Source: Gammaproteobacteria bacterium (GTDB lineage Bacteria > Pseudomonadota > Gammaproteobacteria > Ga0077536). Taken from it: a stretch of DNA of 64,000 nucleotides. Position numbers and translations under genes: made by a program. Positions 29,898 through 61,911 of this stretch are shown piece by piece. The notes beneath the pieces are model-generated. The model was not told the DNA's origin. It saw only the letters and a list, made by a program, of their open reading frames with translations, and did not search any database. Location of the stretch: contig CAXXLL010000003.1 in NCBI GenBank assembly GCA_963662545.2, positions 1,888,001-1,952,000 on the forward strand, in the 5' to 3' direction. Numbering within the stretch: the first letter of the stretch is position 1; each line of letters starts with the position of its first letter.

Positions 29898-30007
29898 ACC
29901 TAACAAACGGATCAACCTGACGTGTTACAGCGCGCTTCTTTAGGTCGGCTGCGCATTTTCGCCCGAAAGAACCGCGCTGTAACACGCAGGTTATCCTAGC
30001 GTTAGGC
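29898..30007 (+). repeat. attC site, representative of the 110-bp host type
   Basis: R'' ACCTAAC, L'' GGATCAAC, stem CCTGACGTGTTACAGCGCG / CGCGCTGTAACACGCAGG, L' GTTATCC, R' GTTAGGC. Confidence 0.93.
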
Positions 30008-30073
30008 GTAAAGTGCCGTACAAAGCTGATGTCTCGGAAGATTAAAGATCAGCGCATTGGAAGGTGTTGTTAA

Positions 30074-30541
30074 GTGAATCTTTGCGGCAAGTGTTCGTGT
30101 GGTAATGTTCGATACGAGATTCTGAAGACGCCGCTGTTTACGCAGGCTTGTCATTGCGCCGATTGCCAACGGACTACGGGAAGCGCCTTCGTCATTCATA
30201 TTGTCGTATGCGAAACGGACCTGGCAATCGCAGGAAAAACTCGCATGGGTTTGGGTCCTACTGGCAGCGGAGCAAAATGCGAGCTGCACGCCTGCGCGTC
30301 TTGTGGCGTGATCGTTTGGGTTCGTTACCGCTATCACCAAGTGCCGGTCATCGCCGTGCGTGCTGGAACGCTCGACGATACACACGCGGTGTCACCACAA
30401 GCACACATATTTGTAAGTCGGAAACAGCCTTGGTTGCAGCTACCTGAGGATGTGCCACTATTCGAAGATGGTGCAGACAAAAGTCAAATATGGCCCAGAG
30501 AGAGCATAGAAAGGTATGAAGCGCTCCCTAAACTTGAATGA
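30074..30541 (+). CDS. Cassette: GFA/CENP-V family protein
   Basis: GKCSCG, CHCADCQR, CASCG zinc motifs. Confidence 0.88.
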   Translation: MNLCGKCSCGNVRYEILKTPLFTQACHCADCQRTTGSAFVIHIVVCETDLAIAGKTRMGLGPTGSGAKCELHACASCGVIVWVRYRYHQVPVIAVRAGTLDDTHAVSPQAHIFVSRKQPWLQLPEDVPLFEDGADKSQIWPRESIERYEALPKLE

Positions 30542-30588
30542 AATAGCGGTTGGCGCACAACGTAGCTGTTCGCGCGTTCCGCCTAACA

Positions 30589-31773
30589 AGTGACTGTGGT
30601 TTGAAGTCAATAGAATTAGACTAGTTCGGGGTTCCAAGGGGTTCTGTTTTTGACCATGACATTGAGGATGGTCAACAGTTTTCGCATGCAGGCGACGAGT
30701 GCGACTTTGGGTACTTTCCCCGCGGCGATTAATCGTTGGTAGGTGCGTTTAATTTTCGGATTGCACTGGATAGCGGACAGCGTTGCCATAAACAATACGG
30801 TCCGAATACGGTAACGTCCGCCGCGTATTTTTCGTTTACCTTTAAAGGCCTCACTTTCTTTGTTCATGGGCGCGACCCCGACCAGGGCTGCGATCTGTTT
30901 ACGGTTAAGGTGGCCGAGTTCCGGTAGTTCGCTCAACAAGGTATAGGTGAGCACTTTGCCGACGCCTTTGGTGCTCATTAACACATCGCGTGTGTCGGAC
31001 CACCCGGGGGATTTATCGATGAGTCGGTCGAGGCGCGTGTCGAGTTTGGCGATTTCAGCATCGAGGTATTTCAGATGCCGTTGGATGGTGGTGCGCAGGG
31101 TGTCGGGCATGATCGCCAACCGATTTTTCTCCATGGTCGCCATTTCAAGGAGTTGGCTGCGTCGGACTAACAGGTCGCTGATTTGGCGTGTTTGTTGAGA
31201 TTTAGGGGGTGTGGCGCGCGGCTTGAGTGCTTCAGCGAAGTGGGCAATGGCGGCGGCGTCCAGGGCGTCGGTTTTGGCCAATCGGCCGGTGGCTTGAGCG
31301 AATTTGCGCACGTGGGTTGGATTGGCGACGCTGACGGCCAACCCCGCCTGCTGTGCGGCACACACGAAATCGCGCTCGAGACGCCCGGTGGCCTCAATGA
31401 CCACCCGCGTGGGTTGAATGGACTTCAGTTGCTTTACCGCTGAGGTGATACCGGCTTTGGAATTGTCGACACTGAATGCGGTACCTGACGGGCGCACGTA
31501 GAAATCCAGTTGCTGTTTGCCGGTGTCGACACCGACGTTAATTTCGTTGGGATTTGTAAGTTTCATAAGATAAGCTGACTCTGCCTTGCAATACGGGCTC
31601 GGGGCCCTAATGACTGTTCGAGTTGTTACTTAAGAGCTATGCACCGCTCACACTTGTTAGCGGTCTCTGCACGCAGGAACCGTGGATCAATCGAGCTGGT
31701 GCATAGAGGCCTTCAGCCGTTACTGAAGGTGGGCCCCAATTTACCCTTTCTTTGCAAAAACGAACCATACAAA
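30589..31773 (-). mobile_element. IS110-family element inserted in attC (recombinase 30616-31566)
   Basis: DEDD residues VGVDTGK, VIEATG, KTDALDA; no terminal IRs; splits attC as GCCTAACAA|...|ATGGATCAACC. Confidence 0.93.
31570..31740 (-). ncRNA. Putative IS110 bridge RNA (5' hairpin, target-binding loop, donor-binding loop)
   Basis: Hairpin 31710-31729; stem 31637-31706 with an internal loop holding attC-matching guides at 31682-31690 and 31653-31660; second loop about 31576-31625 with donor-matching guides; RNA ends approximate. Confidence 0.8.
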
Positions 31774-31883
31774 TGGATCAACCGGACGTGTTACAGCGCG
31801 TTTCTTTAAAGCAGCTTCGCATTTTCGCTCTAAAGAAGCGCGCTGTAACACGCCGGTTATCCTAGCGTTAGGCGGCAGGGAAA

Positions 31884-32129
31884 ATGAGTCCGACCGTATT
31901 TCGTGAAAAGGGTTACAGGTTTTTCTTTTTCTCCCTGGAAGAGTCACGAACTCATGTTCACGTGAGGTCCCAAGCCGGCGAGGCGAAGTTTTGGCTAGAG
32001 CCAGATATCGAATTGGCGAGAAATCACCGGTTATCCCAAATACAATTGAATGAAGTCCAAGCCATCGTCGAGGCACGGAAAGATGAACTCATCGCAGCCT
32101 GGCGCGAACACTTCGACAGTAGTAACTGA
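31884..32129 (+). CDS. Cassette: DUF4160 protein (putative toxin)
   Basis: MSPTVFREKGYRFFFFS.E...HVHV...EAKFWL. Confidence 0.85.
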   Translation: MSPTVFREKGYRFFFFSLEESRTHVHVRSQAGEAKFWLEPDIELARNHRLSQIQLNEVQAIVEARKDELIAAWREHFDSSN

Positions 32130-59455: not shown

Positions 59456-59456
59456 T

Positions 59457-59714
59457 ATGAAAGATTTCAAACGTGCAAAACGTCGGATTGAAGTGAGTGT
59501 AGGTGAGTCAGTGCGAATCCTCCGCGAGCTACAGAAAATGAGCCAAAACGAACTGTCCGCCGCGTGCGGTATTCCGCAGTCGACCATTTCGGCGATAGAG
59601 AACGATCGGATAAACCTAGGCGTTGAGCGTGCAAAACAGTTGGCACACGCCTTAAAGTGTCATCCGGCAATACTGGTATTTCCAGGATGGCAAATTGACG
59701 ATTATGCGGCTTAG
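59457..59714 (+). CDS. Cassette: XRE-HTH antitoxin
   Basis: LRELQKMSQNELS...QSTISAIEN. Confidence 0.88.
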   Translation: MKDFKRAKRRIEVSVGESVRILRELQKMSQNELSAACGIPQSTISAIENDRINLGVERAKQLAHALKCHPAILVFPGWQIDDYAA

Positions 59715-59726
59715 ATTTCCTAGCAA

Positions 59727-61423
59727 GTGTCCGTCCATAAACAGGCATTTTCTTCGATGGGCACGGAGAAATCGAGGTGTTGAAAGTAGGTTGTTGGAGC
59801 GGTAGCGGCGGTTCGGTGGGGGTCGAAGGGCTCTTCGAGCGTAATTGTGAGTACGTTCGCCGGCCGCAGAGCGCTGCAACCCAAAGTCGCCCGTTCGACG
59901 ATATCGAGGAGGTCAGTTAGTGCGAGTGAACGTCGCTATTCGAGTTGATAGCGCGCGAGCAGGCTGAGGTTGTAGGCGACCACAGAAGACCACACGTAGG
60001 CTTCGAAGTGCGGCAGGCTCTTCCAGGTGCAACGTGCCAATCCGTATGCACGCTTCAGGCAGGAGATACCGGCCTCGATGCCGGCGCGGAAGTTGCGCAA
60101 GCGTCGATAGACCCACTGACTCTTGACCATGTCGGCGATCGCGAGCCCGCGCTTCTTGTGGAAGGCAACGTCTTCGATGCCTTCTGCTTTCGCCGCCCGG
60201 AGATTGTCGAGGCTCGCATAGCCGCCATCGGCGGCGACCTGTCGTGGCATCGTCCCGTAGTGTGTTCGATGCCGTTCGAGCATCGGCATGAAGCGCTGAC
60301 TATCGACCGGATTGCCTCGCTCGATGACCACGTCGAGGATGAGGCCACTGCGCCCCGAAGCCAGATTGATTTTGTGTCCGTACTGAACGTCGCGCGCACC
60401 CTTTATGATGATGTCGGTATGCGGCTCGAACAAGCTCACGCACTTCTCGCTCGCGGGGACCTTCTCACCGCCGAACACCCGCCGCTCAGTTTGCGAAATC
60501 ACCTGCAGAACAAGTGTTTCGTAGTGCGCTACCTGCGCTAGCCAGTCCGGCAGTTCAACGCCGGTGACGCCCGGGCTCAGCAGCTGCTCACGTACCCTCG
60601 CTACCGCTTCCAAGGTTGAACGCGTCGCCCCAATCAAATCGCGATACAGACGTTGGCGTTGCTTCGCACCACGCGCATACCACAGCGCCCGCGCACGCTT
60701 CTTCGCCAATCGAGTGTGGTTCACGAAGCACAACTCCGGCGCGCCAGGCAACTCGCGCGCCTGTGCGAGCAGACGAACCACAACACGCACGCCATCCCAC
60801 AGCAGATGACTGTCGCTCGGCGCGTGGATGGCACTGTCCGTTACCGTGCTATCAATCCGTACACGCTGTGCCGGCTCAATGCGCGTCTCTTTCGCCGTCG
60901 CCAGCAGGGCGCGATGAATAGACTCCCACGTCGATACCTGGATCGCCGAGACCACCCGCTGTAAGGCAGACTTCTTCGGACGTTCATTACCCGGCAACCG
61001 GGCGAAGGCCTGAAAGCTCGCCGAGTCCTGCAGGTGAAAGGCCAGCTCCTCGTAACTCAATTGCCGGTGCTGCTTGAGCACCGCGCAGCGCAGCACCGAC
61101 TCCGCCGACAGTCCGCGTCGACCGGTGGGCTTCAAACCCCGCCGACACAGATCGTTCATGACCGGCGTGAGGACCTTGGGGTGAGCATCGAGCCACTCGG
61201 ACATGCCCTGCAGCTCTCGCCCCAGGTCATGGTCAGCAAACAGCTCGTATATACTCGCTTGGGCCGTGCGTTTCTGACGCATTCCCCCTCCTGTGGTGTC
61301 GATGATTGTGTGGAAAATCAGAGGTTTGAAGTTCCATTAGATCACGACCCACCGGAGGTTTCGATCCCTTAAGCGACAAATTTTCCTTTTTATTTCAACC
61401 GCATCGCGTTTAGGGATGCACAC
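59727..61423 (-). mobile_element. ISNCY/IS5-like IS, copy 2 (transposase 59936-61282)
   Basis: Same protein and length as copy 1; 6-bp duplication TAGCAA. Confidence 0.88.
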
Positions 61424-61648
61424 TAGCAAAGTGCAACGTCGACCTAACAAATGGATCAACCGGACGTATTACAGCGTGCTTGTTTGGGCCGGCGTCGCAT
61501 TTTCGTCCTAAAAGAGCCTGCTGTAACATGCAGGTTATCCTAGGTATATGGACCTCCCCTAAAATCAACACGCGTGTTTACATTTAATTGACTCCGGTTT
61601 GTATCTAACTCACGCCTTGAGGCCGACCGTTAAGGTTATCCTAGCGTT

Positions 61649-61795
61649 GAGGCGGTAGGATAAGTCCTTGCGAATAAATGCTCGGAAATTCGACCTTGTC
61701 AGATGCTCCGGAAGCGACGATCTCGGTTAGGGTAGAGGTTTTAGGATCCCCGAAATCAGCACATTTTCGGTCTACCGGACTTTTTCTACACCCTC
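61649..61795. mobile_element. 147-bp MITE inserted at the R' GTT of the last attC
   Basis: Imperfect IRs GAGGCGGTAGGATAAGTCC / GGACTTTTTCTACACCCTC; flanked by GTT on both sides, followed by GTTAGGT. Confidence 0.7.
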
Positions 61796-61911
61796 GTTAG
61801 GTGCCCCAGAAGAGTTTGACGGTAGATAGTTCGGGGTCAGCTTTTGCCTATCGCCAACTTTCGGGCGAATGGCAAGAACTGACTCCGCGATTCCCGACAA
61901 AGGAAGGCAAT

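Follow-up and report, generated by a model that had tools for sequence, protein, structure and literature searches.

Insertion sequences of several families map to lineage-specific positions at the attC sites of a gammaproteobacterial cassette array

Insertion sequences (IS) of several families were mapped to fixed positions at the attC sites of a cassette array in a 64,000-nt stretch of DNA from a Gammaproteobacteria bacterium (GTDB Ga0077536; assembly GCA_963662545.2, contig CAXXLL010000003.1, positions 1,888,001-1,952,000 of the forward strand). The whole of this stretch is called the window here; coordinates preceded by C2 or C3 refer to contigs of the same genome (5.58 Mb), and all others to the window. 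Lineages of IS481, IS30 and IS3, an IS110-type element and a miniature inverted-repeat transposable element (MITE) each occupy their own nucleotide of attC. The insertions are independent, and relatives elsewhere behave in the same way. Judged from sequence, the cassette array in the window is very probably the main one of a chromosomal integron, parted from its integrase by an ISL3 inversion and colonised by site-specific attC inserters of one orientation, each lineage at its own nucleotide. A preliminary description of the window had proposed, for 29898-61802, that attC is a shared landing pad with each IS family at its own position. This held for the five element types just named, but not as a general rule for the IS10-like, ISL3 and IS5-like elements.

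Insertions beside R'' by the IS481 and IS30 lineages

Along the plus strand, from 29898 to 61802, a repeat of about 110 nt recurs that has the form of attC, an imperfect palindrome between inverse core sites. Its cores, R'' = (A/G)CCTAAC and R' = GTTAGGY, fit the RYYYAAC ... GTTRRRY rule. Using an nhmmer profile made from 19 repeats, we obtained 23 matches on the plus strand of the window at E ≤ 1e-13 plus three partial ones (26 in all), which we read as about 24 attC sites. The genome as a whole gave 60 matches, occupying 5,834 of its 5,583,118 bases, and about 40 of these same repeats are without any IS. The arms of the sites were folded against each other as a duplex, a procedure validated on the genome's own attC sites. 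The R'' arm carried two single-base bulges in 14/14 window sites folded as the bottom strand, and the bulges lay on the mirrored arm in all 8 top-strand folds that completed. Sites of the attC type are known to be asymmetric in this way, with two extrahelical bases on the R''-L'' arm. In the intervals from one site to the next, the list of open reading frames (ORFs) contains short, mostly co-oriented, cassette-like frames, among them GFA, DUF4160, a ParE toxin with its antitoxin, a methyltransferase, SnoaL and a helix-turn-helix (HTH) protein.

By Pfam, self-comparison and genome searches, 13 IS were found in the window, the number first described: two each of ISL3, IS481, IS3 and IS5-like, three IS30, one IS110 and one IS10-like.

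The IS481 transposase has the Pfam domains rve, rve_3, LZ_Tnp_IS481 and HTH_32, and the element ends in 13-nt imperfect terminal inverted repeats. Both window copies lie on the minus strand. IS481-1 (28616-29889; Pfam rve/LZ_Tnp_IS481) is without its 47-nt left tip and adjoins the intact attC 1 (29898-30006, profile positions 1-109, E 9e-36); IS481-2 (38345-39665) is complete at 1321 bp, is bracketed by a 3-bp duplication (CAC) and adjoins the intact attC 6 (39674-39782). Their flanks confirmed the observation that both end 8 nt before R''. All seven genome copies with an intact right end lie outside R'', six at 8 nt and one at 9 nt; the eighth copy is truncated. The seven share one orientation but have seven distinct left flanks, differing at the very tip, and they adjoin at least two attC subtypes with differing spacers. 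Clean 3-bp duplications flank two of the seven (copies 5 and 7). Empty IS481 sites were sought in the genome and none was found, only short conserved motifs being matched.

Relatives of IS481 were picked by transposase similarity alone, blind to their context, as the 80 best loci in contigs of one genome per species. They are 53-69% identical to the window transposase and come from Nitrospirota, Beta- and Gammaproteobacteria, Acidobacteriota, Methylomirabilota, Binatia and others. An R'' box lies 6-9 nt from the IS tip in 39 of the 56 distinct readable flanks (23 at 8 nt, 12 at 7, 2 at 9 and 2 at 6). Duplications of 3 bp were read by eye at 14 of the 27 outside loci with both ends readable, and one metagenome-assembled genome (MAG) holds four IS481 copies adjoining four different attC sites. 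A plasmid collection contained only distant relatives of this IS (≤47% identity), and no attC-linked copy was seen there. The placement would follow if this clade inserted 5 nt outside R'' and duplicated 3 bp, which would set the tip 8 nt from R''.

Two further observations concern IS481. The stem of attC 14 (45880-46014, plus strand, nhmmer) contains an insert of about 25 nt (45956-45981) with a sequence identical to an IS481-internal piece; each of the 8 IS481 copies has this piece, and it is absent elsewhere. At C2:438448-437094, three units are stacked at one attC: an IS481 8 nt from R'', an IS10-like element in the R'' spacer and the remaining attC.

The IS30 element is about 1.1 kb long with 26-nt inverted repeats. 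The window copies, all on the minus strand, are IS30-E (35194-36283), with an intact 316-aa transposase (35224-36174), IS30-H (42850-43938), in which the frame is broken into ORFs of 91 and 167 aa, and IS30-I (46642-47731), 99.4% identical to IS30-H. In tblastn searches the 316-aa ORF matched, at 50-60% identity, features of plasmids that carry the annotation IS30 family or ISVa6. The intact attC sites 5 (36286-36394), 11 (43941-44049) and 15 (47734-47843) follow the three copies. The preliminary description was right that all three sit at one position, but the gap of 4 bp that it gave is in fact 2 nt, because a filled and an empty site, together with the relatives, define the tips. This pair, C3:358581-357495 (filled) and C3:908474 (empty), differs only by the IS and a 3-bp duplication, the last base of which is the first base of R''. 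Insertion by the IS30 clade would thus take the first R'' base into the duplication and leave the tip 2 nt from R''. All five genome copies occupy this one position and have five different left flanks, differing at the tip. Four of them, of the IS30-H type, are 99.5-100% identical, and one of these has an empty-site paralogue.

Outside the genome, we collected 80 metagenome loci with IS30 relatives of 50-66% identity, selected without regard to context. The R'' box is exactly 2 nt from the tip in 47 of the 64 readable flanks, and in 7 more when the flanks were read by eye. A perfect 3-bp duplication, made up of the last box base and the spacer, was seen by eye in 17 of the 55 outside rows. In the plasmid collection we saw only distant IS30 relatives (ISVa6, about 52%) and no attC-linked copy; the one plasmid copy of ISVa6 examined has no box at 2 nt. 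At metagenome locus L164, an IS30 relative adjoins the tip of an IS481-like element.

The box alone cannot tell one side of attC from the other, because its sequence is identical on both sides of a duplex attC. The bulges, however, lie on the arm adjoining the IS in 38 of the 42 clean IS30 hairpins (2 opposite and 2 ties), and among 19 IS481 hairpins the bulged arm faces the IS in about 17 and is opposite in 2 (L069 and L074). Since the bulged arm faces the IS, both lineages are placed outside R'', and their transposase genes point away from attC, the arrangement also seen in this genome. L069 and L074 belong to a distinct IS481 sub-lineage and look as if inserted beside R'.

Elements that split attC

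The attC sites next to IS481 and IS30 are full-length profile matches and are left whole; the site is split, and should be disabled, by IS3, the IS110-type element, the IS10-like element and the MITE.

The IS110-type element (30592-31774, minus strand) encodes a 316-aa DEDD transposase (30616-31566; Pfam DEDD_Tnp_IS110 and Transposase_20, PF01548 and PF02371), the only IS110-family transposase found in the genome. It severs attC 2 into R'' plus 4 nt (30581-30591) and a right piece from L'' to R' (31775-31872; nhmmer match 31765-31872), both on the plus strand, in agreement with its reported place between R'' and L''. The other genome copy, identical in sequence (C2:1370824), is likewise inserted 4 nt after R'', between different flanks. 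The non-coding DNA amounts to 197 nt upstream of the transposase gene (31567-31763) versus 24 nt downstream, and the element is of IS110 rather than IS1111 type because the long region lies upstream; in the available text of PMC11187229, this region is upstream of the gene in IS110 and downstream in IS1111. The last 11 nt of the element (31764-31774) mimic R''. Within the non-coding region, a 9-mer equals the left target flank and an 8-mer is complementary to the right flank, and the two fall on opposite sides of a predicted internal loop. Such a two-sided layout is that described for seek and bridge RNAs (the parts of PMC11187229 and PMC11208160 that treat them). Rfam gave no match to the region and, at gathering thresholds, no bridge-RNA or intron family was matched anywhere in the window. 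The sequence evidence is good for this element, which would find attC, 4 nt after R'', through a predicted bridge- or seek-type RNA made from the upstream region. The junction beside R'' recurs at 4 loci in two other genomes, in relatives of 45-50% identity, and more distant relatives are without it.

Two IS3 forms, 77% identical, sit at the same attC position just after L'', as first described. IS3a (32400-33650, plus strand, ends placed to about 4 nt) has terminal repeats and overlapping orfA (32455-32814) and orfB (32811-33620), with rve in orfB and HTH_21 among the Pfam matches. It divides attC 3 into a left piece with R'', L'' and a few nucleotides (32373-32399, plus strand, profile positions 1-30) and a right piece (33654-33738, plus strand, positions 24-109); an intact paralogous cassette with its attC is present at 39679-40454. 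IS3b (54104-55353, plus strand) has two stops in orfB and lies in attC 20, the right piece of which (55354-55442, plus strand) was placed by nhmmer and flank reading. The two flanks of IS3b come from different attC subtypes, which marks it as a recombinant between two insertions. Relatives of IS3 with 57-67% identity, in four other genomes of the class, are also inside attC after L'', where the clade would insert.

The array ends in attC 24, in which R'' to L' (61442-61543, plus strand, nhmmer and sequence) is followed by two insertions. The MITE (61649-61795, 147 bp, non-coding) has 19-bp imperfect terminal inverted repeats with GTT on both sides and splits the R' core, the remainder of which (61796-61802, plus strand) overlaps the start of a DsbH-like gene. 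It was correctly placed at the R' GTT at the outset, and all four genome copies, 76-83% alike, are at that trinucleotide, which would be its insertion point. No autonomous partner was found for it. That the MITE might be a tiny cassette was considered and rejected: no core of the R'' type is present in it, and the pairing of its terminal repeats extends to its outermost bases. The second insertion, between L' and R', had been taken for an IS1111-like end. We found there only a unique 90-bp insert (61544-61633) between 11-bp direct repeats (61533-61543 and 61634-61644), with no match elsewhere in the genome.

The remaining splitter (52746-54082, minus strand), an IS4-family element with a 397-aa transposase (52764-53957; Pfam DDE_Tnp_1), is one that we take to be IS10-like from the likeness of its tips to IS10. 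It interrupts attC 20 after R'' and its spacer (52731-52745, plus strand), the last 9 nt of which are the left copy of a perfect 9-bp duplication; a second attC piece (54083-54103, plus strand) separates the element from IS3b. The duplication at R'' had been noted before and starts at the last base of R''. Both identical genome copies, the second at C2:438440-437094, occupy the same nucleotide of attC in one orientation, with right flanks that differ from each other at 3 of about 24 positions, which argues for a tie to attC. They have 16 nt of left flank in common. It is equally probable, however, that the element is in attC only through an ordinary 9-bp preference to which the spacer of one attC subtype conforms by coincidence. 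A 76% identical relative in the genome occupies a non-attC site with a similar 9-bp target. Relatives of at most 44% identity are at ordinary sites (15 termini at 10 loci outside, and 2 distant copies within the genome), which counts against including this element among the attC inserters, and no closer ones were found among the 400 genomes sampled. We regard its attC targeting as undecided.

Alternative explanations, recognition of attC and known systems

Mapping of the genome copies, as the preliminary description had advised, placed all those of IS481, IS30, IS3, the IS110-type element and the MITE at attC, whereas those of ISL3 and IS5-like were not so placed. Relatives of IS481, IS30, IS3 and the IS110-type element in other genomes and metagenomes, picked blind to their context, share the offsets. 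Since attC bases are scarce and yet every copy of five element types is at one offset and in one orientation, chance is excluded.

Three further explanations of the fixed positions were weighed. According to the first, each IS family inserted once, and the positions were inherited as that insertion was multiplied by cassette duplication, integrase movement or homologous recombination. Cassette duplication does occur here (31769-32323 and 39679-40233 are 97% identical), identity between IS481-1 and IS481-2 continues through the neighbouring attC (99.6% over 1391 bp), the three attC adjoining IS30 in the window share one subtype, and the IS10-like copies share their 16-nt left flank. Nevertheless, the left flanks of IS481 and IS30 diverge at the tip, the attC subtypes and spacers vary, target duplications and an empty-site paralogue are present, and relatives (50-69% identity; other phyla and metagenomes) are found at the same offset beside unrelated attC. 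This explanation is very improbable overall and is refuted for IS481, IS30, IS3 and the IS110-type element. The preliminary description had itself named randomly inserted copies, together with one ancestral insertion amplified, as the outcome that would speak against a landing pad; flanks, duplications, the empty site and relatives go the other way for these four and for the MITE.

We give very little credence to the second, in which IS insert at random and survive only in the harmless junctions between ORF and attC. The region is tolerant of insertions, with two IS5-like and two ISL3 copies of the non-specific kind in or at the 32-kb array. But placement exact to the nucleotide, in one orientation and on one side of attC, is beyond what selection can yield; attC itself is split by IS3, the IS110-type element and the MITE, and the specific IS are all at attC though the genome has far more neutral DNA.

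The third, that box and hairpin belong to the IS as an attC-like end of its own and that nothing is targeted, would fit the 11-nt R''-like mimic of the IS110-type element and the IS30-like sequences described next, but we consider it hardly credible, given that near-identical IS copies adjoin differing attC, that the same repeats occur about 40 times without IS, and that duplications bracket the IS without attC; the filled and empty pair also contradicts it. In five IS-free cassettes (R'' at 56082, 49609, 57134, 61442 and 32373), the approximately 26 nt just before R'' resemble the far inverted repeat of IS30, and similar sequence is present to the left of IS30-I (46642) and IS481-2 (38345). 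In local alignment they scored 10-15, where the 99th percentile of the background is 8. These sequences may be scars of former IS30 occupancy, or may attract IS.

Several points weigh against site-specific insertion into attC as the general explanation. No recognisable box was found at the expected distance in 17 of the 56 IS481 relatives and in about 10 of the 64 IS30 relatives, and the bulges are on the far arm at two IS481 loci and two IS30 loci. Five of the seven IS481 genome copies are without matching duplications, which may have been lost through recombination among the 99.9% identical copies. The IS3 junctions permit a 3-4 bp repeat only with mismatches, and one of the two window copies is the recombinant IS3b. 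Recent spread of the IS30-H type, with its broken frame, would need a helper transposase or recoding. The outside loci are mostly MAG or metagenome contigs, in which misjoins at repeats are possible, and kin loci are not independent of each other; none of the conclusions draws on the two unpublished genomes G039 and G141. The whole case is computational, the mode of target recognition put forward for the DDE (Asp-Asp-Glu) transposases is conjectural, and hitch-hiking of IS with cassettes is suggested solely by the intact attC.

The L'' sequences of the outside targets differ widely, and something past the box, probably the asymmetry of the arm, would have to be read. The IS481, IS30 and IS3 transposases may read the R'' box together with the bulged R''-L'' arm, in duplex or folded attC. 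IS481 and IS30 would then ride as passengers of a cassette that is still mobile, because they leave attC whole, and would gain a harmless site as well as transport by the integron. A broader proposal, which we put just short of an even chance, is that at least three unrelated DDE families (IS481, IS30 and IS3) each evolved a lineage that recognises attC by its folded or bulged architecture instead of a plain sequence and inserts at a set nucleotide on the R'' side, that the two attC-sparing lineages use the integron as shelter and vehicle, and that attC is a general docking structure for RNA-guided elements, ribozymes and DDE enzymes.

Targeting of attC by IS481, IS30 or IS3 was not reported in the literature searched, which took in few subscription journals and neither ISfinder nor TnPedia, and an earlier mention is possible; this agrees with the preliminary description, which did not count such positions as established. 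The founding papers on IS1111-attC elements are reportedly those of Tetu & Holmes 2008 and Post & Hall 2009. In the available portions of PMC11187229, PMC12444791 and PMC11089894, the IS1111 group is the only one named as an attC-targeting IS. Its members (ISPst6, ISKpn4, ISPa21, ISPa25 and ISUnCu1; Siddiquee et al. 2024, PMC11187229) have a fixed place and orientation in attC and read the target with their own non-coding RNA, to which the predicted RNA of our IS110-type element is a parallel. They differ from it in that their non-coding region is downstream of the transposase gene rather than upstream. IS481, IS30 and IS3 are further removed from that group, with DDE transposases, inverted repeats, target duplications and no known guide RNA. 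Group IIC introns also insert at attC (the accessible text of PMC3001079); they are likewise an unrelated mobile class that homes to attC in one orientation but, unlike the IS here, are retroelements with a ribozyme and a reverse transcriptase. In PMC4889954, IS in integrons are covered by their frequencies alone, and cassette surveys, as far as the sections seen of PMC11089894 go, list transposases mainly of IS5, IS3 and IS110, without positions. The chromosomal integron of Vibrio cholerae has IS3 copies within the coding sequence of cassettes, and IS copies there drive inversions of the array (PMC11023631, in part). The role of IS in inversions of a large array resembles that of ISL3 here, whereas the IS3 copies there are not described as attC-targeted in that part of the paper.

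Several IS families converge in a similar way on repetitive extragenic palindromic (REP) sequences, which like attC are short, repeated, palindromic and non-coding, and insert there at set positions. IS1397 and ISKpn1 of the IS3 family are REP-homing IS, and a survey of such IS is said to be that of Tobes & Pareja 2006. Their target, unlike attC, is not a recombination site and offers no ride on another mobile system. ISPa11 is a further REP-homing IS (PMC11187229, in the text available). IS30, for its part, has a strong site preference and 2-3 bp duplications, as does the lineage described here. Its targets are palindromic hot spots and its own inverted repeats, whereas the site of our lineage is the outer edge of R'', on the bulged-arm side, across attC sites with differing L''.

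These results add DDE lineages of IS481, IS30 and IS3, an IS110-type lineage and a MITE to the known attC homers, making attC a shared docking site. They may help to explain the abundance of transposases in cassette surveys, suggest that IS can spread as cassette passengers, and provide a clean system in which to study how DDE transposases recognise a structured site and distinguish its two sides. Cassettes should become fused or frozen where attC is split (by IS3, the IS110-type element or the MITE) but not where it is spared (by IS481 or IS30). Such IS also break arrays into clusters without an integrase, of which the inversion of about 390 kb is the example here.

Separation from the integrase and other features of the window

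An integrase gene (intI) was sought in the 64-kb window and not found; the two intI of the genome are at C2:996723 and C3:1527239. The ORF at 26160-27203 had been suspected to encode an integrase, but by Pfam it is a class-I aldolase. At the left edge of the array, ISL3-1 (27230-28616, plus strand; Pfam DDE_Tnp_ISL3) sits in IS481-1, and both elements lie to the left of 29898, where the preliminary description had begun its account. An orphan 47-nt IS481 left tip is present at C3:1524304, adjoining an ISL3 copy (C3:1522894-1524304 region) and 578 bp from the lone attC that accompanies the C3 intI. Both halves of this split IS481, about 390 kb apart and each adjoining ISL3, have an identical 8 bp beside them; therefore, ISL3 inserted into that IS481. 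Inverted ISL3 copies, ISL3-1 being one partner, then recombined, which flipped approximately 390 kb and parted the array from its integrase. With the inversion undone on paper, the order becomes canonical, with intI first and then the cassettes reading away from it.

ISL3 and IS5-like are ordinary high-copy IS with no tie to attC: in the genome, the pieces that end no more than 20 bp from an attC number none of 20 for ISL3 and one of 55 for IS5-like. ISL3-2 (36725-38111, plus strand), identical to ISL3-1, lies within a cassette ORF (36413-36775, which runs into the IS) and is the only IS that clearly interrupts one, as had been stated. The two IS5-like copies of the window, both on the minus strand, are in non-coding DNA at ordinary CTAG-type sites. 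Copy 1 (50522-52227), encoding a 448-aa DDE_Tnp_1/DUF772 protein, is 64 bp after attC 19, and the CTAG site of copy 2 (59720-61425) is 16 bp before R'' of attC 24. Among the approximately 55-60 IS5-like copies are head-to-tail tandem runs of two or three with a 3-bp overlap, at C2:570387-575497, C2:276878-281675, C3:1419907-1425010 and C3:426159-429567.

The other attC sites were all mapped to the plus strand with nhmmer. Sites 4 (34377-34485), 7 (40346-40454), 8 (41012-41120), 9 (41735-41843), 12 (44633-44742) and 13 (45242-45350) are intact, and sites 10 (42357-42463, E 5.5e-15) and 22 (56519-56628) are divergent. Sites 16 (48315-48422), 17 (48882-48993), 18 (49609-49717), 19 (50349-50457) and 21 (56082-56190) complete the series. 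In attC 23, the left piece (57134-57167) and the right piece (59101-59127, nhmmer and sequence) are separated by a block of 1.9 kb (57168-59100) that stands in place of the centre of the site. The block contains two attC of other, shorter classes and three ORFs, namely a reversed small ORF, a methyltransferase and a SnoaL-like ORF. Within another cassette (41314-41422), a perfect 46-nt direct repeat occurs with its copies 63 nt apart. To the left of the array, the chromosomal part of the window carries a tRNA gene (15634-15705) and a 6S RNA gene on the minus strand (19598-19783).

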